Origin: Candidatus Dojkabacteria bacterium
GTDB lineage: Bacteria; Patescibacteriota; Dojkabacteria; GCA-002793355
NCBI GenBank assembly: GCA_030583685.1
Contig: CP129470.1
Span: forward strand, 340,345-404,344
Direction: 5' to 3'
DNA: 64,000 nucleotides
Part shown: one piece after another, positions 38,680-61,590 of the stretch
Position numbering within the stretch: the first letter of the stretch is position 1
Layout of the letters: every line of letters begins with the position of its first letter
The notes under the pieces: generated by a model
Seen by the model: only the letters and a program-made list of their open reading frames with translations
Database searches by the model: none
Told to the model about the DNA's origin: nothing
Program-made: the position numbers and the translations under genes

Positions 38680-38795
38680 GCTTGGCGACGACCTATTTTC
38701 CCAGGAGAAAAATCCAAGTATCTTCGGCGCTGGGGTGTTTCACTTCCGAGTTCGGAAAGGGATCGGGTGGGTCCACTCCGCTCTTGTCACCAAGC
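38680..38795 (-). rRNA. rrf: 5S ribosomal RNA (116 nt), unlinked from the 16S-23S unit
   Basis: Reverse complement GCTTGGTGACAAGAGCGGAGTGGACCCACCCGATCCCTTTCCGAACTCGGAAGTGAAACACCCCAGCGCCGAAGATACTTGGATTTTTCTCCTGGGAAAATAGGTCGTCGCCAAGC. Terminal helix GCTTGGTGAC/GTCGCCAAGC. Loop-C/helix-III block 'CCGAACTCGGAAGTGAAAC' and loop-E region 'AGCGCCGAAGATA' align with the E. coli 5S positions. Confidence 0.8.
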
Positions 38796-38800
38796 ACAGA

Positions 38801-38829
38801 ATTATAACACGCAGATTGTTACTTGGCAA
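38801..38829 (-). promoter_or_regulatory. sigma70-type promoter for the 5S gene (TTGCCA-17 nt-TATAAT, 6 nt before the 5S 5' end)
   Basis: Minus-strand read 'TTGCCAagtaacaatctgcgtgtTATAATtctgtgGCTTGG...'. The hexamers lie at complement(38824..38829) and complement(38801..38806). Confidence 0.45.
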
Positions 38830-38849
38830 TATCACGGTATAATAAGTAT

Positions 38850-40754
38850 ATGAAGCGACCTAGCAAACGACAGATACTTCTTTTTAGTGTTGGAATAATC
38901 GGTACAATCGCATTATTAATGCTAGTCTTCGTGACGGTACAATTCATTTCAAAGCGCGCTTCTCATAATGGATCGATACAACTCCCTACGCCAACAGACA
39001 TTGTTGAAGAAGCTGAGGAGAAACGGCTTTATCCCTTACGGCCAATCATTCTACCAGTCGGTTATCAATTGAGCACCGAAGAAATAAACCTCCTTAAAAG
39101 CGAAGAAGTTACAGACATTATAATCGAAGACGAAACAGAAGAATACAAGTCCTATATCAGAAACATGCTCTTGACTAATCACCTTACAGGAATCTCACTT
39201 GAGAACTTTGCTTTATGCAAAGATGCTAACCTGGCAGTTTCTGACAACTCTGCTATCAATACCTTTATTATTCAGCAAAGTAGTAACAATAAAGAGTGCT
39301 TACCTGAGCACAAAAGAGGAAATATTTCAATTCTTGCATGCAACAAGGAGTCGCTTTTTTCGTGTTCACAACGGCTCATCGAACTCTCTGGTTCACTGCA
39401 TCCAGAATCCTATATATATTCTCCTCAATATCCGTTTCTTGCGGTTTACCAACAGCCTTCACTCACTGTGAATAACCCTTTTGGTACATATATCATTGAG
39501 TGGGATAAAGTTTCCTATCCATTCACCGTGACTTCATACAGTGTCGAAGTATTGACAACAAATAATGCAAGAGTGTTTGCAACAGGGAGAATCTCTACCC
39601 TTACCCGTGGTGATTATTTTATGCCAACACAAGAAATTGCGGATCAACCACTCATCACTCGGGTACGCTTTTGGGTTTCAGCAGCCGGCAAATCAATTCC
39701 AAACCCAATTGTTGTTGATAAACTATTTACCTTTAGTCAGTCACACCTCACAACGCAACCGCAAAATAATACCTCCACAGCTCCGCTTGAAATGAGTTGG
39801 ATTCCAGACTGGGGAATGACCGCAGGAATTACTTCAGTGCGTAATAATCCAAAAAAATGGCACACAATTTCTCCAACCTGGTTCGTTTTGAACAAGGATG
39901 GATCGCTTGGTAAGCGCCCAACAATAAATAATGCAACACTCACGAAGCTGCTTAAAGACAATCAAATCGTTTTACTCCCTACGATAGCGACTTTTGATCC
40001 TGATATTGTCAGTTCTATGCTCAATTCCCATATGGATAAGCACATCAAGGAAATTGTTGATACCGTTGTGAAAAATAATTACGCGGGCATCGATCTCGAT
40101 TACGAAAGCACTTATCTGAAAGACAAAGAATTACTCATTACTTTTGTCGAAAAACTGGCAGAGGAACTTCATAAAAAAGGGAAAAAGCTCTCATTTACCG
40201 CACTTCCCAAAATTGATGACCGGGAAATCTACAGTTTTCTTCCAGAAACGCATCAGGCGCAAGACTGGCGACGAATTGGTGCAGCGGTCGACGAATTTCG
40301 CATTATGGCCTACGATTTTACGGGGCAAGGAAGTAAACAGCCCGGTCCACTCTCTCCTATCTACTGGAATGAGACACTTATACGCTACGCAATCGCCCAA
40401 ATGCCCGCAGAAAAAGTTGTACTTGCCCTCCCTTTGTATTCACACGGATGGCCAAAACCAAAAAGCTCAAATCTTGCTGGGGCGAACAATGATCAATCGC
40501 TACACTCAGGAGAATTGAAAAACACCATATCTCTGCAACATTCAAATATTGACTACATAAAGCGCAACACCAGAACATATACAGAAGCATACGATAATTG
40601 GAACAAAGAGATGCGTGCAGAGTTCACGTATAACGGAGTTGAACGGGTGATGTATTATTTAGACAAAACAGCAGTAGAAGAACGTCTTGAATTAGCAAAG
40701 AAATACGGCATCAAGGGTGTTTGTTACTGGAGAATTGGCGGAGAAAGGTTGTAA
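38850..40754 (+). CDS. membrane-anchored glycoside hydrolase family 18-like protein (chitinase/lysozyme-like fold) with ~300-aa N-terminal region of unknown function
   Basis: TM 'ILLFSVGIIGTIALLMLVFVTV'. GH18 catalytic-strand motif 'YAGIDLDYES' (DxDxE). Start set to the ATG at 38850 (MKRPSKRQ), because the ORF-track TTG start at 38823 would overlap the 5S promoter. Confidence 0.5.
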   Translation: MKRPSKRQILLFSVGIIGTIALLMLVFVTVQFISKRASHNGSIQLPTPTDIVEEAEEKRLYPLRPIILPVGYQLSTEEINLLKSEEVTDIIIEDETEEYKSYIRNMLLTNHLTGISLENFALCKDANLAVSDNSAINTFIIQQSSNNKECLPEHKRGNISILACNKESLFSCSQRLIELSGSLHPESYIYSPQYPFLAVYQQPSLTVNNPFGTYIIEWDKVSYPFTVTSYSVEVLTTNNARVFATGRISTLTRGDYFMPTQEIADQPLITRVRFWVSAAGKSIPNPIVVDKLFTFSQSHLTTQPQNNTSTAPLEMSWIPDWGMTAGITSVRNNPKKWHTISPTWFVLNKDGSLGKRPTINNATLTKLLKDNQIVLLPTIATFDPDIVSSMLNSHMDKHIKEIVDTVVKNNYAGIDLDYESTYLKDKELLITFVEKLAEELHKKGKKLSFTALPKIDDREIYSFLPETHQAQDWRRIGAAVDEFRIMAYDFTGQGSKQPGPLSPIYWNETLIRYAIAQMPAEKVVLALPLYSHGWPKPKSSNLAGANNDQSLHSGELKNTISLQHSNIDYIKRNTRTYTEAYDNWNKEMRAEFTYNGVERVMYYLDKTAVEERLELAKKYGIKGVCYWRIGGERL

Positions 40755-43208: not shown

Positions 43209-43397
43209 AAACCACCGAGCTAGTCGGTAAACGAATTCACAAACGTGAATTTTGGATAACTAAAAAGAATCATTCGCTTTACTATTCGTAAAGTATGAAT
43301 TCCTTAGTATTAATCATTAAGAATGGAAACTTAATGCTCAGCCCAAAAAGACTTTGCACAAGTACATTAATAATTGAATAGGTATGTGACCAAACAA

Positions 43398-46544
<3,147 letters not shown>

Positions 46545-48940: not shown

Positions 48941-48969
48941 ATTCTAACACAAACGATTGTAGTGTCAAA
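48941..48969 (-). promoter_or_regulatory. candidate rRNA operon promoter (TTGACA-17 nt-TAGAAT) with AT-rich upstream element
   Basis: Minus-strand read 'TTGACActacaatcgtttgtgtTAGAAT', about 290 nt upstream of the 16S 5' end. Upstream is 'taaatgataaatattcggtaat'. Confidence 0.4.
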
Positions 48970-49149
48970 TTACCGAATATTTATCATTTAGGGGATCAAC
49001 GCTTCTTATTTTTTTCTTAAGAGCAAGGGAATTATACACCGAGAATTAAGGTCAAGTCAAGGGCAGGATGCAAAATAGCAGGAACGTGAAGGAATACTCT
49101 GATAATTGATTGCCCAGACGGGCTTTTCGAGAGTGTCTCGAGAACCTGC

Positions 49150-52100
49150 TTACTCGCTTACATTGACCACATACCACCCAACACTCACACCTTCACTTTG
49201 AGGAGCAGCCAACCGAAGGACAAAACCTCCCTCAAAGGGTTCAACTGCAACTACAACTGCCTTGTTAGGTGTTACTACAACAATAGATTCTTCGGTGACC
49301 AACAGTGACTCAACGGTAAACTCGGTTTCCCCCGCGTCAATGATTACACGTCCAGCTTGCTGGTCAGAGACAATAAGATTATTTACCTTGACCCCCTCAA
49401 CAGAGGCCTCAAGAGCAGTTTCCCCATCAACCGTAATCGCAAAACGATCACTTCCTTCAAGCGTAATCGTTACTGCACCTCCAATACCCTTAATTGTTGG
49501 TGTCGAAATAACAGAAGCAAGTACAGTACCAGACGTTGTCATATTTCCTTCATCATCTACAAAGAAGAGATCATTAACCGCAAGTGTGCGGGTTCGAAGC
49601 ACATTAATTTCTGCGGTTGTCGCTGTTACGTTTGGAACAATAATTCCATGAGTCGATTGTATCGTTGTATCAGTAACCTGATTCCACCCCGCACTTACCG
49701 TTCCAGCAGTTGCAATAGCGGTTTCTGCAGCACCATTCTTAACAAAGATAAGCACCTTCTTCACTTTCTTCCCTCCTACGGTATCAGTTACTGTGGACCA
49801 ATCTATCGCTTCTTGGGCTACAGCAACAACACCAGAACCATCCTTTTGCGCATATCCAGGCAAAGTTGAAGAAATACTCAGTAAGTCACCAACAACAACG
49901 TTGCCACCCGATCCCTCTTCTATCCACGCATATGAAGGACCGAATGTTGCAACAAGATATGGATTCCCTGTTTCATCGTACGGTGTTCTCTGAGCTTCAG
50001 GACCTGTGGCAACACCCAGGAAAGTATTTTTGTTCGCCTGTGCTGCTGCCGTTAAGGCATGAATTACTCTATTCCTTTCATCTACACCTAGTTGCGTTGC
50101 ACCTGAGTATGAGACCAACAGGCCATCTTCAATTTCTGCCTCAGAACCTCCCGCCATATACATCGTCTCAGTGAAACGCACAGGATCATCAAAAATCTCA
50201 ATAATAGGATTCTCCATTTCTTCAAGCACACTTTCAGGTAGTTCGGCGTCTGCTGGTGGGTCATCCTGCCAAATCTCTATTGAGTCTACACGCAACTGTT
50301 TAAGCACTGCTTCATTGGTAACAATTGAGATTTCGAATTCATGGACTACTGATGTTGGAGGCAAATTTGTTGAATGATCAGCAACAAGACGACCATCAAT
50401 AAAGAATCGAGCACTTGTTGCAGTCGTCTCAACTCGCAATATATTCATTGGCAACCCAGTCGCAGGAGTCACTCCCGTATTTGTGGTTGTTGCATTACTG
50501 GCATCAGTTCTTGATACGGCTTGCCATGCGCCACCGTTTGTAGAAAGGAAGTAGGCACCCGATGTTGGAACAGCACCTGTTGAAACGGTACGCTGCATAA
50601 ACCCAACATAGACTACTGAAGTTGCCGCACTCGGCAAGTTTACCTCTGTTTCAAACACTGGGTTATACGCCGTTGAAATTTGATTCACATTGTTGAAATC
50701 AATAAGACAAGCGTTTCCTGATGTTTCCCCCGTTTGCAATTGCACGACACCATTAACAGCTCCGCTGACGAACGATGCCGTACATGCACTATTGATTCCC
50801 AAGCGTAGTCCTTCCCACCAGTTTGCAGTATTTGCAGTAACGTTTGCTCGTGAGCCAATAAAATCTGTAAAGAAATAATGCCATGACTGGTTTATTCTTC
50901 CATCAACAGATAGTGTATCTAGTGGTGGCTTCGCTGCTGATGTTCCAATGCTGACATTTGAAGACTCATTAAAGGTTGTACTTGAATAGCTTCCGGTCAC
51001 CGTAATTCCCGTGTCATCAAAGGTTAAAGGTTGCGTTGCTTCTACATATCCTATGAAGCCGGTTGTGTTTGGTGAGGTTGCTGCTGTTGTTCTGAAAATT
51101 CGATACCCCACTGCTCCTGGAACGGCTGTCCAGGTTATCGTATTGTAGTTTGCTCCTGTAAGAGTTGCAGGAGCACTCGTCCTTGTTCCTTCGGCAGAAA
51201 GAATTGTTTCATTCCCATGTGCATTAACCGCCGAAACTCGATATCTCCAGGTTGCGGCACCTGAACTGGTTCCTCCGACACTCGGTGCTGCCGGTGTCTG
51301 CAAGCCCATAAAAGAAGCCCCACCATAAAAGGCAGAACTTCCTGTTACCGCAAGCGTATTTGTGTACACCTCGACCGCTGTATCATTTCCGTTATCAGAA
51401 AATGCGACGTCAACTGTTAACGAGGTATCAGAAGCAATACTTACGACAGTTCGAATTTCTCCTGAAACAACAATTCTGTCGCCAACACTAACTTCAGCAA
51501 GAAAGCGCGTCCCAACTCCTGTTACTGCAGTCGACGCAATTGGATCAATCGACCCCGTAAGGGTGCGAATGGAAGCACCATATACCTCTAACGTTGCTCT
51601 TGGTTCCGCTATACCCACACCTACGCGACCATTCGAGAGGGTATCACCAGTTCCATCTAGTCCTCTTCCATAAATCATATTTCCAATATTGAGCGTATTC
51701 GACTCCGTCAAGGAAACTGCATTAATGTCTGTTCCAATCACAATATTTCGAGACCCGGTTGTGATATTGTCTCCTGCGCGATATCCGAGCAGGACATTTC
51801 CTGAACCGGTCGACACATCATACCCCGCCGCGAACCCAACTGCGACATTATTGTTACCGTCTAAGTCGTTCGCAGGGTCAAGACTATATAACGCATTCAT
51901 TCCCAATGCAGTATTCTGCAAACCGTAGCGATTACTGAGTAACGATTGAACACCGAGTGCTGTATTGTTATAGCCGGTTTCATTCCCGGATAGAGCACTT
52001 GATCCAACCGCCGTATTGTAAAATCCATCCACATTACCATCCAAGGCAAAACTCCCCAGAGCAGTATTATTATACCCAGTTTCATTTGTATAGAGAGCAG

Positions 52101-55100
52101 AAATACCGACGGCAGTGTTTTCTGAGCCAGTGGTGTTTGCCATTAGTACTTGTGCACCAACTGCTGTATTAAATTCCCCAGTGTTCGCTATCAAGGTATA
52201 ATGACCAACACCTGTATTTAAGGTGCCAGAAACGTTGGATTGTAAGGAATTTGCACCTATGGCAACATTACCACTACCGTCAACATTTTCATATAACGCC
52301 CACCCACCGATTGCAATATTTTCCCAATTATCATTCTTGTACAACGCATTATATCCAAGCGCGATATTATAGTTCCCCCCCCCACTCACTGCCATTGCGC
52401 TGTTTCCGATTGCAATATTATTATCAGCGTCATTTGACTCTGCCAATGCATAATTACCAATTCCAATATTCCCACTGCTCGTCTGTGAATTAGCGAGGAC
52501 ATAGTTTCCAATTGCAATATTTTGCGATGCTTGTATGGCATTGCTTAAATTTTCAATACCAATAACAACATTTCTGTAAACATCAGCACTGCTGTTATTC
52601 GACAATGAACTATACCCAATGAATACATTCTTCGAGAAATCGTCTCCAAGTCCAATCAATGAATCTCCCTTAAGGTCATAGAGAGCGAAGGCAGGCTGTG
52701 CATTCAAAACCTCAACTACAGAAACATCATCTATCGTAAACGTTCCTCCCGTAATGCCATTCCATAATCCAAAGGTCACGGTGTGTGAACCACTGAGTTT
52801 GGCCTTAAAATATTTCACAACCGTTCCATTCCCTGTCACCGGGACTTCAGCACCATCATTCCCACCATTTGACCACCAGTACATGCCATCATTTGCAATA
52901 CCCGAAATAGTAAACTCAATCTTATATATTTTTCCAATCTCAGTCACAATTGAAGTACTTATTTCTGGCCAATCTTCATGCAAACCTTCATCATACGCAA
53001 TGGTTACGGCATTACTACCATAAGTAGCAGAGTCTGCGAGTGTCCATCCGGTAGCACTTCCGGTAAAAGTGCCGTTCGTCACCAATTCTGAGCCATATGC
53101 AGATACTGTACTATCAATGACGAGCTTTGCGTCTCCAGAAGATGCTCCAAAACTTACCCTGCCACTTGTCTTATCAAGAAACAGCAAATCATTCAAAAAC
53201 GAAATGCTTCCATTGCTCGTGCTATCAGTATCAAATCTAAGAACATTATTCTCAGCATCATAGGAAATCATTCCCTGGTCTGAGGAGGAAGCACCGATAT
53301 AAATGGTGTCACCACCAAGATAGAGATCTCGGAAGCGATACGCATCAGAACCAAGGTCATAGGTATTGTTTGCACTTGGCCCAATATGTCCTGCGACTTC
53401 GAGTTTGAAATTACTCGCGGTTGTCCCGATTCCCACATTTCCGCCAGCGGTAATCGACATCTTTTCTGTATTATTGGTTATGAATGACAATCCGTAATTA
53501 TCAGTAGTCCCGAGAACTCCGGTTTCACCAAAGGCATTGCCTCCAAGTTCATAACAATCAGTACATTCTCCCCCTCCTCCGCCACCTACAACGCCAGTGC
53601 CTATCGCATTTAATCGAACATTTTGCGTAATTCCTGAGTAGTTATACAAACGAACATTGTTTGCATCCAACTGTTCGATTCTGAATCCCGATTGCCCAAG
53701 CCAACTAACTCCATATTGCGTCACAAAGGTAGAGGTTTTTGCGTTGGTTCGGGCAAATTCAAAGCGCATCTTCAATTCATTTCCAGAAGCAGAGAAAATA
53801 CACGAATACTCTGTTTCAGGCGGATACACCTCTGCATTTGTTGAAACAACAGTACATGTCGCAAAGGTACTGCCATCGTCAACCGAAGCTTTTACGGTAA
53901 TGGTATTACCAGAATCATCGGCATCGGTTACCCCCTTTACCCAAACGACTGCTGACGCAATATTTTTTGGCAATTCATACATCTTAGATTCATAGACTGC
54001 GCTATTTAATGTTGTTTGATTGTCTGGACCGATAATTTTTGCTCCATCAGTTAATGACGCGACCAACTCAAGATGGTCACCCACCAAAACAGAAGACGTA
54101 TTCTGATTTACCAATACTGGACCACCTGTAGGTACATTTGCAGACGAACCATACGTCTTGATATTAGTGTCCGCATTGAGTTGTATTTTACTGACTCTCC
54201 CATTGCTCGTGTGATTTGTACCAACATACATATATTGACGTTGCTTGTCGATTGCAACATCTCCAATAACATTTGATGTTCCGCCAAGTTGTTGGTTTGT
54301 ATCTGCACCTCCGCCACCAAAGATTGTTCCATGACTTTGCAATGCACGAGATCCTGTTTCATACATTTTGCGAACATCAGCTCCACTAATCTCTGTTGCC
54401 GTCACAAATATTTCATCGAGATACCCATTGAAATACTGGACTGCAGCATTCGCATGGCGACCGATATAAAAACTTTGTGTTACATCCATGATTCCACTCG
54501 AATATGCGACGGAATCTTCTAAAACACCATTAATGTACAGGTTTAGACGAGTTCCTGTATAAACGGTTACTACATGATACCAGGTATCAAGTGCAATCGT
54601 TGTTTTGCTTGTTACAGCGTTACCTGAGGAGTTGTTTAAGGCCTGTGACAAAATTTGATTACTACTATTAAGCGTTGTTATATACCCTCCATTATTCGAA
54701 GCATTAACATTAAAACTTTTCGACATCACCACACGACTGGTTCCCGCTCCCCCTTTCGCCTGAATCCAACCACCCCATGCCCATGCGCCAGAACCGGTAT
54801 AGTCAAGTTTTGAGGTACCACCACAGGAGGCATCAGTACAATAGTAGGCTTGATTGGTTCCGTTGTAACTACCTGCCTCACCTCTGACACCAGATACTGC
54901 CGTTACGGGACCACTTTCATTTGTTAATGTGTTTCCTCTCCCTGATAAATCTCCGTTCATCTGCCACATACCACGAATATCACCAAACATTTCTTCCGAA
55001 ATATTACTTGTTGTATAGTATTTTGCCGATCCAAACTTTTCTGTCCCCCCATCGTTTGCTGTAGCGATTGAATTTCCACTGTTCTCCTGAATAACCGTAA

Positions 55101-58100
55101 GCCCACTTGCTGTTCCAACATAGAGTGTATTTGAACCGGGATCGACTAATGAGCTTCCTTCTTCCACATGAAGAGCATTGATTTGACTTACCCCTGTCGC
55201 ATTGCCGAGTATCGTGGGGCCATTTAAAGACCAACCTGAAGTTGATGCACCAACCCAATAAACTCCAGTTCTATACAAAGCGAGGCTTGACTCAGTCATT
55301 AATCCATGAACATTCCTATAAACCTCGACCCGTGAAATATTGGCCGTTGAGTTACTCATTGCTGAATACAGGGAGTTGTTGTCTGTAAGCTCAACCTTAC
55401 TGTGCCAAATTGTGTCGCCTATGTGCGAGCCAAGGAAAACATGAGCACTTCTTGAATCAGTTTCATTAACTACAGTTACTCCTCCATCAACTCCGCTCGC
55501 TCCTGTGGCTACCGCAATGAATTGTTTTGGAGCAACAACTCCAGTTGCAGTCCACGTATAACAATAAAAGGTAGTCGTACTGAAATTTCCGTCTGCTGCA
55601 TCACTCGCAGATAATCGTTGAGTGAAACTATTATTCGTTATTGATGATGCAATGCTCGTTATTCTTTGGTTCGCTCCCGTACATTCCGCAAGCGTTCTTG
55701 GTGCAGTTGTTGTACGCGAAGCTACCGATACCGTAGAAACTGTAGGAATATTGACAAAAGTATAAGGCAGGAGAACCTGCTCACTTATTGTCGTTGCCGC
55801 AGCACCTTGAATATACCCCCATCCACTTATAGTCACCTCTTTTGTTGGATGATTTGGAATAACTGCGACACTCACATCCATTACCGCATCATGAGCCAAT
55901 GACATTTCAGAGGATAAACTCGAAAAACCAAGTCCTGCGTTTCTTCGGGAAATACTTCCCCCGTATTTTGTATACCCGGCGCTGTGATGATTATAGCCAT
56001 CATCCATTGAAAAACGGATTCTCGCGAAGTACCCTAGTACTTCTGTTGGTTCATTAATACCGACATAGACATTCCCGTTTAATGCTTCAATAGTACGCGC
56101 TTTGAGCAGGGTTGTTACAGGAAGCATGTTAATCGCAGTAGTTGTACCAGATATCCTCATCCATAATTTTTGGGTATCTGCATCAATAATATCGACATGA
56201 TCTCGGGTTGAGATAATATAACTCCGGTCAGGAAACTCCTGTTTTGAACCTCGAATTGAAGAGGTTGGTTCAGTGAACCATGAGGCTATCTGGAACACAT
56301 CTCCCGTCATATACTGTGCCCCTGTGAAAATAACACTCACGCCTGTTGACCCAAGTACCTGCGAGACACCGGGAGTAATGGTAACTCCGGACGCTGAATT
56401 CCCATTGTTATCTGTCCAGTTGAACGTAAAAGGACTCGTAATTGTAATAAGAATTGGTCGTGGGTTACTTGAATATCTCCCGATTGCTTTGATCAGTGAA
56501 CCATTATATGTTGTGCTGAGATTCTTCCCTGCTGAAGACAATAATACAACTCCATTGTTCCAATTCGGATCAATACCCAATTCAACCTGCACCTCAGGGG
56601 AACTATCTTCAGAAAGCTCGTAATAATATGAATCCGTAACCACATTAGTTCCCAAATAATTGTTTCCTGCGGTATCGGTAGTTGAAGAGTTGAGTGTTTG
56701 ATTACCCCATAACCCAATTCTTCCTGTTTGTTCACGATAACCACCAAGTGATTTATGAGGATCGAGCAACTGCATAGAGAATACACTTGTTGTTACGGTA
56801 GAGTCGGTCTTTGTTTTGTCTTCAAAGGTATCGAAAAAGATTCCCTGGTCCAAAAGGTTACTGGTATATGCGCCCGTTTCCGCAATTTGCCGATACATTT
56901 GTGCCGCCTGATAGTAACTTTCTCTCGTAGCATGTCTACCTTCCCACGCAATTGCTGGTGTATATGTTGTATCTAACTGTTTCCAGACTGAATCTGAGAA
57001 AATCCAGCCCATTGCCAATATGTCGTTTGTATCAAAACCATGCTCAATATTGAGGTACGAGCCATTCGCAAGAGATGCATTTGACGCTGTAAGTATTGAA
57101 TTCCCCGTTAAATCCTGCCAACTGAGCGTGCCTGCTGTATTAACCAATACACCATCTGCGGACGCTGTTGGCAAGGTATAGGTAATATTCCCAGACTGGT
57201 CGCCCCCTTGGAATACTGTGTAAAATTCTGGTGAACCTCCCCCTTCAAGAATTCCCAAGGTTCCAGCAACCGAAAGTGTTTGTCCAGGCGTTGCCGTACC
57301 AATACCTACCCGACTTTCTGATTTATCGAGATACAAAACATTAGTAAAGAATGCGATATCTCCATTGCTTGTGCTATCTGTTGAAAAATTGAAAATGTTT
57401 GCAGTCGTATTGTACGAAATAATCCCCTGATCTGTTGCAGAAGTACCGATATAGATACTTTCTCCGCCAAGATAGAGATCTCGGAAACGATATGAATCTG
57501 AGCCAAGGTCATAAGTATCATTTGCACTTGGTAACAGACTTGAGGTCATACTAATGACCCCTGATGTCCCAATTGAAAGCCGTTCAATATTGTTTGTGAT
57601 GAACGAAAGCGCATAATTATCTGTTGTTCCAAGAACTCCTGGTTCGCCAAAGGCATTCCCATCCTGTTCAAAACACGCGGCACAACTCGTTACTGTTTCC
57701 CAACTTAATACCCCTCCTGTATTCGTTAATACTCCATTTACCGAAGTCGTTGGAAGGGTATAGGTGATATTGCCAGACTGATCACCTCCCTGAAAAATGG
57801 TAAAGAACTCAGGTGACGTTCCCCCTTCAAGAATTCCAAAATTCCCCGCTATGGAAAGCGTTTGCTGAGGAGCATACACCCCGATTCCGACATTTCCCCC
57901 AAAATAGTTTGTTCCCCCTTCGGAATACAACGCAAAGGAATCTCCCGATGCTGCATCTTCATAATTGCTAATATATAAACCATACAGGTAATCCACATTC
58001 ATCGTTCCATATGAGCCATGTCCAATCATAATTCCATATACTTCACTGCTGCCAGTCGGTTGTGCACCATAGTAATTTGTTTCTACATTCAAACCAATGA

Positions 58101-61100
58101 AGTTTAAACTTTCTTCTGCATCTTGGAACATTTCAACTACCGTTTCCTGACCAGTTAAATGTGCGACTCCAACATTTCCAGCAGAAACAGAGCTCACAAT
58201 TCCGAACCCGTCCACGTAATCCGCATACCCAAGATACAGGGAGAATACTGCAGCATCACCGCTCAAATAATTCGAATATGCTAAGCCATTTCCATATGCC
58301 TCGACATGAGCACGAATACCATTATAGTATCCCTGATCTTCTATATTTTCACGATAAATGTCGACGATCATACCTTGATATTCCTCTTCTATTTTGTCTA
58401 GGCCATATGAGTCAATTCGCAATCCGGTGCCCCATGAGGTATCAGTATTATGAACAACATGCAATTTCGCCTCTGGTACTGCCGTGCCAATTCCGACATT
58501 TGCATAATCGTAACCACCTCCCGCCGAAAAGATTACTTCCCCACTGCTATCCCGCGCAAGAAACGCTCCCGGGAATGTAATTTCTCTGAATGAAACATCA
58601 TCAAGAGTAAACGTGCTGTTTTCAGTAGATGGATTATTTGTACCAAAGTATACACCACCGTTAGTTCCGTCTTCTCTTGCAAAAAATATAACCTCGTAGG
58701 TGCCGTTCGAATCAAAGGAATTGACAAAACTTGTCGAAACAAGTTCCAGATTAACTAGTTCAATTTGAAGTATAGCGTCAACAGTACTCACGCCAGAAAG
58801 CGTAAATTGTAAGCGGTAATACTTCCCTTGCACAATGGTATATCCTTCCTGCCAAAGTTCACTATTCCCTCCGCCATCTGTAGTTGTGAGTATTACATTA
58901 TTACTTCCATAGGTTGTACCACCATTTGTATCCCATCCGGTCAATCCTCCGGTAAAAGTACCGTTTGTAACTAGTTCAGTGCCGATAACCTCAAATGGCT
59001 TGGCTTGTACATCAAGCGTTGCACGTGGAGAAGAAACACCTATTCCGAGTCTTCCTGTCTCAGACAAAATCATTGCAAGGGTATCGTTTGTGATAAATTC
59101 AAGCGCAAAGTTATCCGTTGTTCCAAGAACCCCTACTGCTCCAAACGCATTCCCGTCTTGTTCAAAACAAGCAACACAACCACCTCCTGCAGTTTCCCAA
59201 CTGAGCACCCCACCCGTATTCGTCAATACCCCATTTGCAGAAGCCGTTGGTAAGGTATAGGTAATGGTTGCAGACTGGTCACCCCCCTGAAAAATGGTAA
59301 AATATTCTGGGGAGCTTCCTCCTTCCAAAATCTTGAGGTTCCCAAAGACGCCCAATCCTGAACCGTCAAGCGAAGCCATATGCTTATTTTCACCATTAAC
59401 AAGCGTCGAAAAGAGTAACTGTCCATCCTCCGAACCCGCTGAAGGATCTATTGCTAGCGCACTCATCGCAGCATAATCCGCATACGACGGTGGCGCACTG
59501 TCATTATAATAGTAAATATTTCCATCACCAGGACCATAGTAGCTTCCTGCAAAAACCACGCCCGTGTCCGTATCGATTCCTAAGCTCACAATTTCGTTTG
59601 CAGACGCGTCATACGACAAGGTCCATTCACCTGAGGAGTCACAACCGGTAGAAACAGAACATACATAAATATAGCCTACGTCTCCCGTAGCAGCATACAT
59701 CCTTCCGTGTACAGGATCATACGCAAGTGCATATATCCAATCTGACATATCTGAATACACTAAGTTCCAATCTCCTCCTGCGTCACAATTCGTAGCCGTG
59801 TCACATCGATAAAGATCATTCTCTGTGGCAGCGTACAGCACATCATTATCTGTATCTACACCGATTGACGTTACGTTTGCATTCGGAAGATCGACGGATA
59901 GTGTCCAATCGGTATCTTGATCACAACCGGTCGACGTTTCACAGCGATACACTCCCGCAGAATATTTTGTTCCTGCATAAAGGACACTGTTTGCGGCATC
60001 AAACGCGAAAGAATCAATCCCACTAATTCCTGAAATATCATAAGGGGCAGTCACCGTAAAATCACCTGAGGCATCACATCCTGTCGCGGCAATATCACAT
60101 CTGTGGACATATTTCAGGGTCGCATTATCTGTTCCAATATAGAGCACCGAGTTATTAGTATCCACGACGAGTCGCTGTCCATCATCATCACCAACCGAAT
60201 AAACTGAGGTCCACTCCCCGGGAATATCACAACCAGTTGTCGTATCACAACGAAATATATTTTGCTCTCCTAACGCAAACAACAGTCCACTTGTTGGATC
60301 AAAAACAATACTTCGTATCGAATTATCAGGGTTTGAGGCTTCATACACCTCTGCCCAATCTCCAGAGGAATCACACCCAGAAGACATTGGACAACGAAGG
60401 ATAACCGGGTCCCATGCAGTTGTCGCATACATTACTCCGTTTACGGAATCATACGCAAAAGCCAAGACATCCTCAAAGGGGGTAGCGTACGACGTCTGCC
60501 AATTTGGCGTCGATACATTTTGTGCGCGAAACACATGTGTCCCAAAAATTGTGTTTGTTCCTGGATTCCCAAGGAGCGTCGTTCCAAAAACGACTGGCCC
60601 AACCGTATCTGCCAGGGTCAGTTGATCAGTTGGCGTAGTCGTTCCAATTCCCACATTTCCACTAGAAGTAATGACCATTCGAGCGATACTGTCAGTTAGG
60701 AATGAAAGCCCATACGCGTCTAACGTTCCTAAAACACCAGGAGCTCCAAACTCATTTCCTCCTTGTTTAAAAAAACTGTTATGAGTGAAGGCGTTACCGG
60801 CACCATCAGTCAATGCTTGTGCTCGCAATGCGACGGGAACTGCAGTAATTGGCTTACGTGTGGAAAAAACCTCCTCATATCGATGGGTTGCAGGAGAACA
60901 ATTTGTATCGCTACTATCACCAGTATTGCCATTTGCATCAAAACAAACCTGTAAGTAAAGATCTGCATTATCAAACACAGTTGAACCAAAAGGCGTCACT
61001 GAACCCAATTCAACACTCAAAATTCCGTCCGTTACTGTCAAAGAACGATCCTCTGACCATACCGCCGTTCCTCCAGTACTGACGGTGTATAACAAAAATC

Positions 61101-61281
61101 TAAAATTGTAAGTATCATTGGGAATATTGGTTCCATCTGTGTTCACCAATTTACTTTGAAACGAAATAGTGTCTGTGGTTGCAGCAAAAACGAATTGAGG
61201 AAAGAAGATAGACACAACAAACAAACAGATGAACAGGGGGAGTATCAGTGCGGCCGGGGCTCGCCGACTTGCTTGCTTCAT
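49150..61281 (-). CDS. giant (4043 aa) secreted/signal-anchored surface protein: Cys-pair beta-propeller-like repeats, repeated phage-tail-fibre-like modules, LamG/ConA-like domain, YadA-head/Hep_Hag-like repeat tract
   Basis: Single uninterrupted 12.1-kb ORF. Signal peptide 'ALILPLFICLFVVSIFFPQFVFAATT'. Six 'xYRCDxxTGCDxxGDWTxxY' units. Three 'ILEGG(S/T)SPEFFTIFQGGDQSGNITYTLPT(A/T)S.NGVLTNTGGVLSW' modules. LamG-like '..WYHVVTVYTGTRLNLYINGVL...QYFNGYLDEIFV'. 'N(T/I)A(V/I/L)G..AL..N..G..' 14-mer repeats. Confidence 0.8.
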   Translation of the reverse strand: MKQASRRAPAALILPLFICLFVVSIFFPQFVFAATTDTISFQSKLVNTDGTNIPNDTYNFRFLLYTVSTGGTAVWSEDRSLTVTDGILSVELGSVTPFGSTVFDNADLYLQVCFDANGNTGDSSDTNCSPATHRYEEVFSTRKPITAVPVALRAQALTDGAGNAFTHNSFFKQGGNEFGAPGVLGTLDAYGLSFLTDSIARMVITSSGNVGIGTTTPTDQLTLADTVGPVVFGTTLLGNPGTNTIFGTHVFRAQNVSTPNWQTSYATPFEDVLAFAYDSVNGVMYATTAWDPVILRCPMSSGCDSSGDWAEVYEASNPDNSIRSIVFDPTSGLLFALGEQNIFRCDTTTGCDIPGEWTSVYSVGDDDGQRLVVDTNNSVLYIGTDNATLKYVHRCDIAATGCDASGDFTVTAPYDISGISGIDSFAFDAANSVLYAGTKYSAGVYRCETSTGCDQDTDWTLSVDLPNANVTSIGVDTDNDVLYAATENDLYRCDTATNCDAGGDWNLVYSDMSDWIYALAYDPVHGRMYAATGDVGYIYVCSVSTGCDSSGEWTLSYDASANEIVSLGIDTDTGVVFAGSYYGPGDGNIYYYNDSAPPSYADYAAMSALAIDPSAGSEDGQLLFSTLVNGENKHMASLDGSGLGVFGNLKILEGGSSPEYFTIFQGGDQSATITYTLPTASANGVLTNTGGVLSWETAGGGCVACFEQDGNAFGAVGVLGTTDNFALEFITNDTLAMILSETGRLGIGVSSPRATLDVQAKPFEVIGTELVTNGTFTGGLTGWDTNGGTTYGSNNVILTTTDGGGNSELWQEGYTIVQGKYYRLQFTLSGVSTVDAILQIELVNLELVSTSFVNSFDSNGTYEVIFFAREDGTNGGVYFGTNNPSTENSTFTLDDVSFREITFPGAFLARDSSGEVIFSAGGGYDYANVGIGTAVPEAKLHVVHNTDTSWGTGLRIDSYGLDKIEEEYQGMIVDIYRENIEDQGYYNGIRAHVEAYGNGLAYSNYLSGDAAVFSLYLGYADYVDGFGIVSSVSAGNVGVAHLTGQETVVEMFQDAEESLNFIGLNVETNYYGAQPTGSSEVYGIMIGHGSYGTMNVDYLYGLYISNYEDAASGDSFALYSEGGTNYFGGNVGIGVYAPQQTLSIAGNFGILEGGTSPEFFTIFQGGDQSGNITYTLPTTSVNGVLTNTGGVLSWETVTSCAACFEQDGNAFGEPGVLGTTDNYALSFITNNIERLSIGTSGVISMTSSLLPSANDTYDLGSDSYRFRDLYLGGESIYIGTSATDQGIISYNTTANIFNFSTDSTSNGDIAFFTNVLYLDKSESRVGIGTATPGQTLSVAGTLGILEGGGSPEFYTVFQGGDQSGNITYTLPTASADGVLVNTAGTLSWQDLTGNSILTASNASLANGSYLNIEHGFDTNDILAMGWIFSDSVWKQLDTTYTPAIAWEGRHATRESYYQAAQMYRQIAETGAYTSNLLDQGIFFDTFEDKTKTDSTVTTSVFSMQLLDPHKSLGGYREQTGRIGLWGNQTLNSSTTDTAGNNYLGTNVVTDSYYYELSEDSSPEVQVELGIDPNWNNGVVLLSSAGKNLSTTYNGSLIKAIGRYSSNPRPILITITSPFTFNWTDNNGNSASGVTITPGVSQVLGSTGVSVIFTGAQYMTGDVFQIASWFTEPTSSIRGSKQEFPDRSYIISTRDHVDIIDADTQKLWMRISGTTTAINMLPVTTLLKARTIEALNGNVYVGINEPTEVLGYFARIRFSMDDGYNHHSAGYTKYGGSISRRNAGLGFSSLSSEMSLAHDAVMDVSVAVIPNHPTKEVTISGWGYIQGAAATTISEQVLLPYTFVNIPTVSTVSVASRTTTAPRTLAECTGANQRITSIASSITNNSFTQRLSASDAADGNFSTTTFYCYTWTATGVVAPKQFIAVATGASGVDGGVTVVNETDSRSAHVFLGSHIGDTIWHSKVELTDNNSLYSAMSNSTANISRVEVYRNVHGLMTESSLALYRTGVYWVGASTSGWSLNGPTILGNATGVSQINALHVEEGSSLVDPGSNTLYVGTASGLTVIQENSGNSIATANDGGTEKFGSAKYYTTSNISEEMFGDIRGMWQMNGDLSGRGNTLTNESGPVTAVSGVRGEAGSYNGTNQAYYCTDASCGGTSKLDYTGSGAWAWGGWIQAKGGAGTSRVVMSKSFNVNASNNGGYITTLNSSNQILSQALNNSSGNAVTSKTTIALDTWYHVVTVYTGTRLNLYINGVLEDSVAYSSGIMDVTQSFYIGRHANAAVQYFNGYLDEIFVTATEISGADVRKMYETGSRALQSHGTIFGGGGADTNQQLGGTSNVIGDVAIDKQRQYMYVGTNHTSNGRVSKIQLNADTNIKTYGSSANVPTGGPVLVNQNTSSVLVGDHLELVASLTDGAKIIGPDNQTTLNSAVYESKMYELPKNIASAVVWVKGVTDADDSGNTITVKASVDDGSTFATCTVVSTNAEVYPPETEYSCIFSASGNELKMRFEFARTNAKTSTFVTQYGVSWLGQSGFRIEQLDANNVRLYNYSGITQNVRLNAIGTGVVGGGGGGECTDCYELGGNAFGETGVLGTTDNYGLSFITNNTEKMSITAGGNVGIGTTASNFKLEVAGHIGPSANNTYDLGSDAYRFRDLYLGGDTIYIGASSSDQGMISYDAENNVLRFDTDSTSNGSISFLNDLLFLDKTSGRVSFGASSGDAKLVIDSTVSAYGSELVTNGTFTGSATGWTLADSATYGSNAVTIAYDEGLHEDWPEISTSIVTEIGKIYKIEFTISGIANDGMYWWSNGGNDGAEVPVTGNGTVVKYFKAKLSGSHTVTFGLWNGITGGTFTIDDVSVVEVLNAQPAFALYDLKGDSLIGLGDDFSKNVFIGYSSLSNNSSADVYRNVVIGIENLSNAIQASQNIAIGNYVLANSQTSSGNIGIGNYALAESNDADNNIAIGNSAMAVSGGGNYNIALGYNALYKNDNWENIAIGGWALYENVDGSGNVAIGANSLQSNVSGTLNTGVGHYTLIANTGEFNTAVGAQVLMANTTGSENTAVGISALYTNETGYNNTALGSFALDGNVDGFYNTAVGSSALSGNETGYNNTALGVQSLLSNRYGLQNTALGMNALYSLDPANDLDGNNNVAVGFAAGYDVSTGSGNVLLGYRAGDNITTGSRNIVIGTDINAVSLTESNTLNIGNMIYGRGLDGTGDTLSNGRVGVGIAEPRATLEVYGASIRTLTGSIDPIASTAVTGVGTRFLAEVSVGDRIVVSGEIRTVVSIASDTSLTVDVAFSDNGNDTAVEVYTNTLAVTGSSAFYGGASFMGLQTPAAPSVGGTSSGAATWRYRVSAVNAHGNETILSAEGTRTSAPATLTGANYNTITWTAVPGAVGYRIFRTTAATSPNTTGFIGYVEATQPLTFDDTGITVTGSYSSTTFNESSNVSIGTSAAKPPLDTLSVDGRINQSWHYFFTDFIGSRANVTANTANWWEGLRLGINSACTASFVSGAVNGVVQLQTGETSGNACLIDFNNVNQISTAYNPVFETEVNLPSAATSVVYVGFMQRTVSTGAVPTSGAYFLSTNGGAWQAVSRTDASNATTTNTGVTPATGLPMNILRVETTATSARFFIDGRLVADHSTNLPPTSVVHEFEISIVTNEAVLKQLRVDSIEIWQDDPPADAELPESVLEEMENPIIEIFDDPVRFTETMYMAGGSEAEIEDGLLVSYSGATQLGVDERNRVIHALTAAAQANKNTFLGVATGPEAQRTPYDETGNPYLVATFGPSYAWIEEGSGGNVVVGDLLSISSTLPGYAQKDGSGVVAVAQEAIDWSTVTDTVGGKKVKKVLIFVKNGAAETAIATAGTVSAGWNQVTDTTIQSTHGIIVPNVTATTAEINVLRTRTLAVNDLFFVDDEGNMTTSGTVLASVISTPTIKGIGGAVTITLEGSDRFAITVDGETALEASVEGVKVNNLIVSDQQAGRVIIDAGETEFTVESLLVTEESIVVVTPNKAVVVAVEPFEGGFVLRLAAPQSEGVSVGWYVVNVSE
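51650..52600 (-). repeat. tract of ~20 short (~14-aa) 'NxAxGxxALxxNxxG' repeats (YadA-head/Hep_Hag-like) within the 4043-aa gene (bounds approximate)
   Basis: 'NIAIGNYVLANSQTSSGNIGIGNYALAESNDADNNIAIGNSAMAVSGGGNYNIALGYNALYKNDNWENIAIGGWALYENVDGSGNVAIGANSLQSNVSGTLNTGVGHYTLIANTGEFNTAVGAQVLMANTTGSENTAVGISALYTNETGYNNTALGSFALDGNVDGFYNTAVGSSALSGNETGYNNTALGVQSLLSNRYGLQNTALGMNALYS'. Confidence 0.5.
59600..60500 (-). repeat. six ~45-aa Cys-pair repeats 'VL(Y/F)xxT...(Y/F)RCDxxTGCDxxGDWTxVY' (beta-propeller-like) within the 4043-aa gene (bounds approximate)
   Basis: 'LRCPMSSGCDSSGDWAEVYE', 'IFRCDTTTGCDIPGEWTSVYS', 'VHRCDIAATGCDASGDFTVTAP', 'VYRCETSTGCDQDTDWTLSVD', 'LYRCDTATNCDAGGDWNLVYS', 'IYVCSVSTGCDSSGEWTLSYD'. 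Each is preceded by 'D..N.VLY(A/I)(G/A)T'. Confidence 0.5.
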
Positions 61282-61478: not shown

Positions 61479-61551
61479 TGCGCCCGGTAGGAATCGAACC
61501 TACAACCAACAGATTAGAAGTCTGCTGCTCTATCCGTTGAGCTACGGGCGC
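61479..61551 (-). tRNA. tRNA-Arg (anticodon TCT)
   Basis: GCGCCCG-TA-GCTC-AACGGATA-GAGC-A-GCAGA-CTTCTAA-TCTGT-TGGTT-GTAGG-TTCGATT-CCTAC-CGGGCGC-A. No CCA is encoded. Confidence 0.85.
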
Positions 61552-61590
61552 ATAGATAATTATATCAAAATTCACGAAGAAATGTCATTA

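Follow-up and report, generated by a model that had tools for sequence, protein, structure and literature searches.

The superfamily of mosaic adhesive trimer (MAT) proteins has been defined together with the MAT fibres of Bdellovibrio (Caulton et al. 2024, PMC10769870). These fibres (Bd2133, Bd3182, Bd1334, and Bd2439) are mosaic proteins of ∼600 to 1150 aa that are encoded by the cell, a diderm predator that grips its prey with them, and not by a phage. Their signal peptide is followed by a β-rich N domain of ∼130 aa, a shaft motif (..L.F.T....RM.I...GNVGIGT..P...L.V) forms a trimeric β-helix in the solved MATs, the C terminus is a variable ligand-binding tip, and relatives occur with and without a Peptidase_S74 domain. 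In Patescibacteria, the giant surface proteins of Vampirococcus lugosii (1392 to 4163 aa; PMC8080830) and the very large surface proteins of Absconditicoccaceae (PMC13059738) have been proposed to mediate host attachment, and multiple adhesins are needed for the epibiotic growth of a saccharibacterium (PMC10633639). In the literature that we searched, no paper joined Patescibacteria with MAT, Bdellovibrio, and fibre.

We analyzed a stretch of 64,000 nucleotides (the window) from contig CP129470.1 of Candidatus Dojkabacteria (Patescibacteria/CPR), an uncultivated bacterium with a tiny genome. The ORF at 49150-61281, annotated as "hypothetical protein" WKZ24342.1 of this MAG, starts with ATG and encodes 4043 aa plus a stop codon in a single uninterrupted frame, as a sequence-only reading of the window had stated. 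The gene and all of its features described below lie on the minus strand. The same reading had paired it with another giant gene, which is indeed present (23612-34750, 3712 aa). However, the product of the latter consists of DUF2341 and LamG and has neither a MAT_N-like domain nor the fibre motif. As the two genes belong to different families, we rejected the idea that they form one system.

The N-terminal end of the 4043-aa protein resembles that of the Bdellovibrio MATs. A putative Sec-type signal peptide (aa 1 to 33; 61183-61281), read from the sequence as MKQASRRAPAALILPLFICLFVVSIFFPQFVFA followed by ATT, contains a charged n-region (K2, R6, and R7), a hydrophobic core (aa 10 to 32), and a predicted cleavage site between VFA and AT. 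Homologues have the same layout, with the cleavage site kept where the following domain begins, which agrees with the secretion signal proposed earlier. Directly downstream lies a β-rich domain (aa 34 to 174; 60760-61182) with a conserved Cys113/Cys128 pair. Its sole NCBIfam match was Bdello_MAT_N (E value of 1.1e-3, 18.4 to 18.9 bits), and 13 of 13 aligned homologous N domains matched this model, with a best E value of 1.9e-9 and all scores under 60 bits. Since NF053851 Bdello_MAT_N models the Bdellovibrio subfamily and has a curated cutoff of 60 bits, these scores indicate a distant relative outside that subfamily. The protein thus appears to carry, immediately after its signal peptide, the β-rich ∼130-aa domain homologous to MAT_N that is part of the MAT definition. 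A genome scan with a narrower N-domain alignment returned only four close Patescibacteria loci. The protein has no recognizable cell-wall anchor, so its retention on the cell can only be proposed.

The shaft motif of MATs, here GGNEFG..GVLGT.D..L.F.T....RM.I...GNVGIGT..P...L., occurs four times, at aa 162 to 241 (60559-60798), aa 696 to 776 (58954-59196), aa 1194 to 1264 (57490-57702), and aa 2568 to 2647 (53341-53580). The last three copies are associated with an upstream Cys pair (C702-x2-C705, C1200-x2-C1203, and C2573-x2-C2576, respectively). When a profile of the motif (A9) was compared with the PDB, it matched Bdellovibrio MAT crystal structures only (Bd2133, Bd3182, Bd1334, and Bd2439): 8OND (Bd2133; 1.8e-24), 8OJN (Bd3182; 3.4e-17), 8OML (1.2e-11), 8OL4 (4.6e-7), and 8ON4 (1.8e-5). 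The four shaft segments are homologous to the solved trimeric MAT β-helix fibres. Judged by its sequence, the 4043-aa protein is related, at a distance and in enlarged form, to the Bdellovibrio MAT fibres. It differs from them in its fourfold length, in its Patescibacteria host cell, and in the propeller, LamG, and jelly-roll-like domains and ∼975 unmatched residues that are inserted between its shaft segments.

Three kinds of repeated module accompany the shaft. The first (ILEGG.SPE.FTIFQGGDQS..ITYTLPT...GVLTNTGGVLSW) is found at aa 640 to 703 (59173-59364), aa 1131 to 1198 (57688-57891), and aa 1333 to 1396 (57094-57285), with 64 to 77% mutual identity. We therefore recovered the three ILEGG.SPEFFTIFQGGDQS copies of the sequence-only reading, whereas the GGNAFG..GVLGTTDN..L.F.TN part, which it had placed behind each of them, is present in four copies, not three, and stands behind ILEGG in only two of the three cases. 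The second module (YDLGSD.YRFRDLYLGG) was correctly recognized as a pair (aa 1257 to 1342, 57256-57513; aa 2641 to 2726, 53104-53361). Its copies are 52% identical, and the first is 60% identical to a segment of the relative P0048. The third, a pair of ELVTNGTFTG..GW domains of ∼145 aa each (aa 761 to 910, 58552-59001; aa 2723 to 2866, 52684-53115), had been missed by that reading; the copies are 34 to 40% identical to each other. This domain has no Pfam match, and its sole outside match with a PDB profile was marginal (4mgq, a "Glycosyl hydrolase family 10" chain; E value of 0.0098). It may be a jelly roll that binds carbohydrates. The mature chain has 28 cysteines, all of which fall into 14 local pairs, a signature of extracellular proteins.

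Further domains separate the shaft segments. A β-propeller-like array (aa 255 to 625; 59407-60519) comprises six blades with a C-x5/6-C pair (297/303, 345/351, 395/402, 447/453, 493/499, and 541/547), followed by about one Cys-less blade. The blades are spaced by ∼48 to 52 aa and are 35 to 41% identical to one another, in line with the six-blade Cys-pair array reported earlier. The array gave a weak, subthreshold Reg_prop match in Pfam and shares 46% identity with the corresponding part of P0048. The LamG-like domain of the same report was identified as Laminin_G_3 (PF13385), a concanavalin A-like lectin domain (aa 2164 to 2303; 54373-54792; E value of 1.2e-17, 64.9 bits versus a gathering score of 27.6). 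Two smaller domains had escaped notice. One is FN3-like (aa 3335 to 3440; 50962-51279): its profile (A5) matched PDB 3mpc, an "Fn3-like protein" (E value of 2.5e-6), the single sequence has no Pfam fn3 match, and the domain occurs in 76 proteins in a representative search. The other (aa 3237 to 3305; 51367-51573; TGSIDP.AST.VTGVGT.F...VGDRI.VSGE.RTV..I.SDTSLTVD.AFS) has no sequence relative in the PDB and was found by the same type of search in 67 proteins, with up to 22 copies in one of them. It is shared with phages, being present in 24 IMG/VR viral contigs at 47 to 75% identity. In size, signal peptide or membrane targeting, FN3 and concanavalin A-like domains, and proposed role in host recognition, the protein resembles the giants of Vampirococcus and Absconditicoccaceae; the likeness is by description and not by sequence, as those proteins have been described by generic domain content only.

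Large parts of the interior resemble nothing in the databases. The domain at aa 940 to 1130 (57892-58464) has no Pfam or PDB match, and its sole relative lies in P0052 (30% identity). The central region (aa 1396 to 2140, 745 residues; 54862-57096) is β-rich and absent from all collected relatives, and searches of Pfam, the PDB, phages, and metagenomes yielded no relatives. A metagenome scan with aa 1440 to 2130 found none, and tblastn of aa 1396 to 2560 against phages gave weak LamG matches only. AlphaFold2 modeled aa 1396 to 2140 with a mean pLDDT of 26.7, too low for the model to be of use, from an alignment consisting of three near-identical alleles. The domain at aa 2330 to 2560 (53602-54294) has no Pfam match, and only its last ∼70 residues are common to P0052. 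In total, ∼975 residues (aa 1396 to 2140 and 2330 to 2560) are without a match and could have a different activity. Consequently, the protein does not belong to one known family over its full length; such membership would have contradicted the view of it as a mosaic. A Pfam search of 16 separate segments at an E value of ≤1 revealed, beyond LamG, only subthreshold noise, and a PADLOC scan yielded nothing but noise.

The sequence-only reading had described ∼20 14-mers similar to YadA head/Hep_Hag repeats. We found instead 18 repeats (N[ITV][AG][ILV]G..AL..N..G..; aa 2886 to 3200; 51682-52626) that recur every 17 residues (range, 16 to 22), and the 4043-aa protein has no Pfam match to YadA_head, Hep_Hag, or YadA_anchor even at an E value of ≤1. 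The array matched PHROG 4636, "tail spike protein" (E value of 1.2e-29), and by tblastn 112 phage records, with 33 to 42% identity to tail fibre or tail spike proteins (best, 2e-34), including Roseobacter phages, Pelagibacter phages, and cyanophages. The likeness to YadA trimeric autotransporters is thus limited to the concept of a fibrous adhesin and to superficially similar short N.A.G-type repeats, which in YadA have a period of 14. Unlike YadA, the protein lacks a C-terminal β-barrel anchor, and the demonstrable relatives of its array are phage proteins. The wrong repeat period and the missing Pfam matches led us to reject a YadA-like adhesin. Of the proposed mosaic of phage-tail-fibre-like and trimeric-adhesin-like modules, then, the phage side holds, through the shaft (by way of the MAT fibres), the array, the small phage-shared domain, and the C-terminal module described below, while the trimeric-adhesin side does not.

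The C-terminal part starts with a conserved domain of ∼220 aa ending in W.DDP (aa 3455 to 3675; 50257-50919; 12 homologues), which sits where Peptidase_S74 stands in the relatives P0003, P0004, and P0052. It is followed by a conserved module of 344 aa (aa 3700 to 4043; 49153-50184), also missed before. Neither gave a significant match with PDB sequence profiles, and a profile search of a word-indexed database with the C-terminal alignment returned nothing. In structure models, the module appears to consist of a phage-type β domain (aa 3705 to 3849), a segment that was not modeled as a monomer (aa 3850 to 3973), and a small β-sandwich (aa 3974 to 4040). The shaft-like part of the module had low confidence in a monomer AlphaFold2 model. 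Its start is predicted to have the fold common to the C-terminal fragment of phi29 gp12 (PDB 3GQH), which we take to be the auto-chaperone fragment of that protein, and to phage decoration proteins. Peptidase_S74 (PF13884) has no match in the 4043-aa protein, which would therefore belong to the "non-S74" MAT group, whereas P0003, P0004, P0007, P0012, and P0052 carry this domain with its SD...K motif. The S74 domain and the 17-residue array link this family to phage tail fibres and tailspikes. However, S74 usually ends the protein in phage fibres, whereas the C-terminal module lies downstream of it in the S74-bearing relatives, and the 4043-aa protein differs from phage fibres by its lack of S74, its secretion signal, and its chromosomal context.

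The relatives (1,499 to 3,462 aa) are conserved at both ends and varied or reshuffled in their interior. Three more full-length alleles, 97 to 99% identical, come from independent assemblies, and comparison of the four alleles revealed a strain-variable tract of 900 bp within the central region (aa 1801 to 2100; 54982-55881), which holds 86 of the 154 variable columns. In this tract, dS is ∼1.4, versus 0.04 to 0.06 in the flanks, and dN/dS is 0.14, a pattern that indicates import from a divergent allele. Saturated synonymous divergence and the low dN/dS led us to reject diversifying selection, and the same features together with mixed substitutions led us to reject hypervariation by a diversity-generating retroelement (DGR), whose changes would be nonsynonymous, adenine templated, and limited to a short variable repeat.

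We think it somewhat probable that the protein is a Sec-exported fibre, most likely a homotrimer, of the phage-tail-fibre-derived MAT superfamily that tethers the Dojkabacteria cell to a host or partner. After export, the N-terminal domain would, as has been suggested for MATs, keep the fibre on the envelope of the cell that makes it, and the C-terminal module would start trimer folding from the C-terminal end, in the manner of the chaperone domains found at the C termini of phage fibres. Since the tip binds ligands in Bdellovibrio MATs but is replaced here by a conserved module, binding by the interior domains is something we only infer. The variable ligand-binding parts would be the globular domains between the shaft segments, namely, the disulfide-stapled propeller, the two ELVTNGTF domains, LamG, and the central 745 residues. 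These may recognize glycans or proteins on the surface of another cell and so tether the small cell to it, and exchange of interior segments between alleles, as exemplified by aa 1801 to 2100, may retune specificity. By analogy, attachment to a partner or host cell is plausible, and the idea of an epibiont attachment factor fits the proposals made for other Patescibacteria giants (PMC8080830, PMC13059738).

The protein might instead have a general role in the surface or matrix, for instance as a fibre of a surface layer, as a factor in biofilm formation or aggregation, or as a binder of particles or polysaccharides. It would then coat the cell or make it adhere to abiotic or polymeric substrates, without specific host recognition. 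We consider this unlikely, although it is the best of the alternatives. In its favor, the domains concerned (LamG, FN3-like, and possibly carbohydrate binding) are of generic kinds, and similar sets occur in the large adhesins of free-living bacteria. Dojkabacteria have no known host, and the gene for a GH18 protein lies 8 kb away. On the other hand, the closest characterized relatives, MAT fibres (PMC10769870) and phage tail fibres, serve to recognize cell surfaces, and the combination of conserved ends with a varying interior and an imported allelic segment is typical of specificity determinants.

It seems rather improbable that the protein is a tailspike-like enzyme fibre, in which a depolymerase (glycosidase, lyase, or peptidase) located in the central region or the 17-mer solenoid opens the capsule or wall of a partner and binding is secondary. 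Further structural neighbors of the C-terminal domain do include tailspike depolymerases and the C-terminal domains of K1 lyases, but these similarities are confined to C-terminal noncatalytic domains. Likewise, some of the phage proteins that matched the array bear the name endo-N-acetylneuraminidase, but this is the depositors' label only. The unassigned ∼975 residues leave room for an enzyme, yet no segment matched a catalytic family in Pfam, NCBIfam, PHROGs, or the PDB.

Several modules are common to phage tail fibres and viral contigs, as would be expected if the gene encoded a tail fibre of a phage or prophage, or a component of a phage-derived particle (e.g., a tailocin), and merely lay within the chromosome. 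The genomic context makes this very improbable. The gene is placed between a tRNA and an rRNA operon, its neighbors being a tRNA gene, a CYTH gene, the 16S-23S operon, an ABC transporter, YidC, and RecR, none of which is a structural gene of a phage, an integrase gene, or a terminase gene, and the upstream neighbors are the same in a second strain. In addition, the N domain and the C-terminal module are absent from IMG/VR, the protein has a Sec signal peptide, and its 4043 aa are far above usual fibre sizes. The flanking genes, the context in the second strain, and the absence of both end modules from IMG/VR lead us to conclude that the fibre is cell encoded and not part of a prophage. The tRNA gene (61479-61551) lies directly upstream on the same strand, and the best σ70-like site (61588-61559) is ahead of it, in a promoter scan that overall showed no enrichment over shuffled sequence. 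Speculatively, the two genes might have a common transcription start.

That a giant, repeat-rich protein from a metagenome-assembled genome reflects a gene in decay or an artefact of assembly (a repeat chimera) has a negligible probability, since all four independent assemblies give ORFs of 4042 to 4043 aa, dN/dS (0.185 overall, 0.07 to 0.22 segment by segment) denotes purifying selection along the whole length, contradicting a frameshifted pseudogene, and the DNA copies of the internal repeats are only 63 to 81% identical, which makes them old duplications too divergent for misassembly.

Returning to the tethering fibre, a bolder version of this explanation is doubtful but possible. Ultra-small Patescibacteria and Bdellovibrio would use one phage-derived fibre toolkit for the recognition of other cells, in the patescibacterial giants with an inverted design in which neither end varies (the N terminus being a self-anchor and the C terminus an assembly module able to replace or follow S74) and host-range cassettes along the shaft, such as aa 1801 to 2100, are swapped by recombination. 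The ∼975 unmatched residues would then represent a new receptor-binding class.

Except for a few cultured Saccharibacteria, little is known about the way in which Patescibacteria locate and hold their hosts, and the giant surface proteins of these bacteria have so far lacked a description beyond generic domain content. If the function were only generic adhesion, the protein would be an ordinary, though very large, surface protein. Placing it and its relatives of 1.5 to 4.5 kaa among MAT and phage fibres provides a testable model that assigns anchoring to one end, assembly to the other, and specificity to candidate cassettes. The conserved ends may serve as search handles for such fibres across CPR genomes, and the variable interiors could be compared with co-occurring hosts. 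The MAT placement suggests that predators and epibionts have a common solution for recognizing other cells.

The minus-strand ORF at 49150-61281 encodes what is, judging from its homologies, an exported protein (hereafter the giant protein) with the N-terminal domain and the shaft of the mosaic adhesive trimer (MAT) fibres of Bdellovibrio. Single-sequence searches gave weak leads, namely the NCBIfam model Bdello_MAT_N at aa 24-98 (E 0.0015) and PDB entry 8OJN at aa 185-235 (E 8e-4). Homologues were collected with residues 1-900 as the query, and thirteen of their N domains were aligned; all thirteen matched Bdello_MAT_N and no other NCBIfam model, with a best E value of 1.9e-9 and every score below the curated cutoff of 60 bits. 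A profile of the shaft motif (GGNAFG...GVLGT.DN type), built from 15 sequences comprising four internal copies and homologues, retrieved from the whole PDB only MAT crystal structures: 8OND (Bd2133, E 1.8e-24), 8OJN (Bd3182, E 3.4e-17), 8OML (Bd1334, E 1.2e-11), 8OL4 (Bd2439, E 4.6e-7), and 8ON4 (E 1.8e-5). [quoted passage not shown] S74, the intramolecular chaperone domain of phage fibres, is absent from the giant protein and present in several of its relatives (P0003, P0004, P0007, P0012, and P0052), and some homologues bear the NCBI name [quoted passage not shown]. In contrast to the MAT fibres, the giant protein is of fourfold size and has globular cassettes inserted along its MAT-type shaft.

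We checked the module composition described in a sequence-only reading by fragment-against-self BLAST and motif counts. The signal peptide, the six-blade array with a C-x5/6-C pair in each blade, both YDLGSD modules, and the LamG-like domain (Pfam Laminin_G_3, E 1.2e-17) were found as described. The three ILEGG copies were also present, but the GGNAFG motif, said to follow each of them, occurs four times and follows just two of the three. The supposed 20 or so YadA-head/Hep_Hag-like 14-mers proved to number 18 and to recur every 17 residues (aa 2886-3200), without any Pfam match to YadA_head or Hep_Hag even at E<=1. In PHROGs this 17-mer array hits entry 4636, "tail spike protein" (E 1.2e-29), and tblastn aligns it with 112 phage records at 33-42% identity; Roseobacter phage CRP-7 (2e-34), Pelagibacter phage HTVC111P, and cyanophage P-SSM2 are among them, with proteins of the tail fibre or tail structure. 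A duplicated domain of ~145 aa (aa 761-910 and 2723-2866) had gone unmentioned. In the mature chain, all 28 cysteines fall into 14 local pairs, as expected of an extracellular protein; the one cysteine outside these pairs, C19, belongs to the signal peptide. Three shaft motifs out of four are immediately preceded by one of these pairs, of CxxC type (aa 702/705, 1200/1203, and 2573/2576).

With aa 3230-4043 as the query, exhaustive HMMER searching collected 1595 proteins at E<=1e-3 and resolved four modules. The first, a small domain of 70 aa at aa 3237-3305 (window 51367-51573; TGSIDP.AST.VTGVGT.F...VGDRI.VSGE.RTV..I.SDTSLTVD), has no relative in Pfam or the PDB, reaches 22 copies in one other protein (P0050, from an FCB group bacterium), and occurs in 24 IMG/VR viral contigs (loci L005-L028) at 47-75% identity. 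It is followed by an FN3-like domain (aa 3335-3440; profile against the PDB, 3mpc, E 2.5e-6), by a conserved domain of ~220 aa that ends in W.DDP and has no PDB relative (aa 3455-3675), and by a terminal module of 344 aa (aa 3700-4043). The terminal module always forms the very end of the proteins that carry it, P0003 and P0004 (1499 and 1514 aa), P0054 (2437 aa), P0052 (2546 aa), P0048 (3336 aa), and P0193 (3462 aa), and all six likewise open with the same signal peptide followed by the same N domain (54-63% identity). IMG/VR holds no relative of the terminal module or of the N domain. In P0003, P0004, and P0052, a canonical S74 (motifs YSDARYK and TSDRRLK) is followed by the conserved terminal module of the giant protein (~330 aa), and the W.DDP domain of the giant protein sits where S74 stands in these relatives. 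The chaperone domain of S74 proteins is normally terminal; its position in P0003 (contig L003), P0004, and P0052, where it is not the last domain, is unusual.

AlphaFold2 modelled aa 3690-4043 with a mean pLDDT of 59.7, confidently for aa 3705-3849 (about 85), moderately for aa 3974-4040, and with low confidence for aa 3850-3973. The fold neighbours of this C-terminal module include the C-terminal fragment of phi29 gp12 (PDB 3GQH), the phi29 head-fibre base, and the C-terminal domains of tailspikes, and Foldseek comparisons with PDB entries and with viral models agree with them. The 3GQH fragment is the auto-chaperone part of phi29 gp12, cleaved off once the trimer has assembled.

The giant protein combines a phage-type repeat array and a phage-type C-terminal fold with lectin-type and FN3-type domains, and the ends are conserved and the interior mosaic in its family. 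Taking MATs and phage fibres as models, we propose that the chain would trimerise, that the C-terminal module would start folding, that the N domain would hold the fibre on the producer's own envelope, and that the globular inserts would bind surface structures of another cell. Since the fibre of Bd3182 (922 aa) was modelled at about 55 nm (PMC10769870), the mature chain, some 4,010 aa long, could plausibly reach 100 nm or more, a figure that the globular inserts make a guess. Very large surface proteins were proposed earlier for attachment in Vampirococcus (PMC8080830) and Absconditicoccaceae (PMC13059738), and adhesins are required in a cultured saccharibacterium (PMC10633639); the putative attachment role of the giant protein agrees with this work. 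A generic surface or matrix adhesin is an unlikely alternative, though not a negligible one.

Relatives of this candidate attachment fibre have in common the shaft motifs, the ILEGG and YDLGSD modules, the propeller (46% identical between the giant protein and P0048), and the 17-mer array, in differing orders and numbers. Among relatives gathered with terminal queries, a sampling that makes the absence not exhaustive, aa 1396-2560 is missing throughout, apart from the LamG type of domain and a short segment that P0052 also has. Neither aa 1396-2140 nor aa 2330-2560 has a match in Pfam, NCBIfam, PHROGs, the PDB, phage genomes, or JGI metagenome contigs, and the AlphaFold2 model of aa 1396-2140, at a mean pLDDT of 26.7, is too poor to use. 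We regard a tailspike-like enzyme hidden within this unassigned region as improbable.

The giant gene is chromosomal. A tRNA and a CYTH gene lie upstream, where the neighbours are identical in a second strain; YidC, RecR, ABC transporter, and GH18 protein genes are nearby, and a 16S-tRNA-tRNA-23S operon with the same orientation begins 495 bp downstream. Phage genes were not seen around it, and a prophage or tailocin fibre, for all the phage-type modules, is very improbable. One of the best sigma-70-like sites (11/12 matches) lies at 61559-61588, upstream of the tRNA preceding the giant gene, and two more with 11/12 matches (49031-49060 and 48941-48968) lie in the 495-bp gap between its stop and the 16S gene; the scan overall showed no enrichment versus shuffled sequence, and no convincing terminator was found 3' of the gene. 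The match to 23S rRNA (43393-46529) is 3137 nt long versus a 2925-nt model, which implies an insertion of ~210 nt. The 5S gene (38680-38794) is 4.6 kb apart from the 23S gene, with ABC transporter, DUF6624, and GH18 protein genes between them; the last, on the opposite strand at 38823-40754, encodes 643 aa, with Glyco_hydro_18 confined to the C-terminal 240 residues and some 400 unassigned residues ahead of it.

As had been claimed, the 12.1-kb ORF is single and uninterrupted; it has an ATG start, and its 4043-aa product exactly matches WKZ24342.1, [quoted passage not shown], on a contig of 888,748 bp. Independent assemblies supplied three more alleles, which encode 4043, 4043, and 4042 aa (99, 99, and 97% identical). 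Nei-Gojobori rates against the DNA of L029, the most divergent allele, gave a gene-wide dN/dS of 0.185, with each segment in the range 0.07-0.22. With all four alleles intact, these values establish that the gene is intact and constrained over its full length, and not the pseudogene that the sequence-only reading had allowed for. Repeats inside the gene are only 63-81% identical at the DNA level, so mis-assembly is unlikely. An artefact or pseudogene can thus be set aside almost entirely.

Of the 154 columns that vary among the four alleles, 86 lie within aa 1800-2100. Compared with L029, the tract at aa 1801-2100 (window 54982-55881) has a dS of about 1.4, a dN of 0.20, and a dN/dS of 0.14, whereas dS in the flanks is 0.04-0.06. 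This ~900-bp tract therefore bears the signature of import from a divergent allele. Diversifying selection was rejected on the same dS and dN/dS values, and a diversity-generating retroelement because the dS/dN pattern does not fit.

The other giant ORF (23612-34750; 3712 aa, WKZ24332.1) carries DUF2341 and Laminin_G_3 near aa 684-962, has neither a MAT_N-like domain nor the shaft motif, and shows weak similarity to parts of the giant protein (about 20-33% identity). The two had been presented together as giant surface proteins; lacking the N domain and shaft motif of WKZ24342.1, WKZ24332.1 does not form a matched pair with it.

Giant surface proteins of Patescibacteria and the MAT family are already published, and many patescibacterial relatives are already named "tail fiber domain-containing" in NCBI. 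What appears to be new is the link between the two, for which a full-text literature search returned no paper joining Patescibacteria giants to MAT fibres (not proof of absence), together with an architecture of fourfold size, globular cassettes on a MAT-type shaft, and a conserved C-terminal module following or replacing S74. Recombinational exchange within the unassigned core also appears to be new. About a quarter of the giant protein is without explanation and its function is a proposed one, yet it opens host recognition in an uncultivated lineage to testing.
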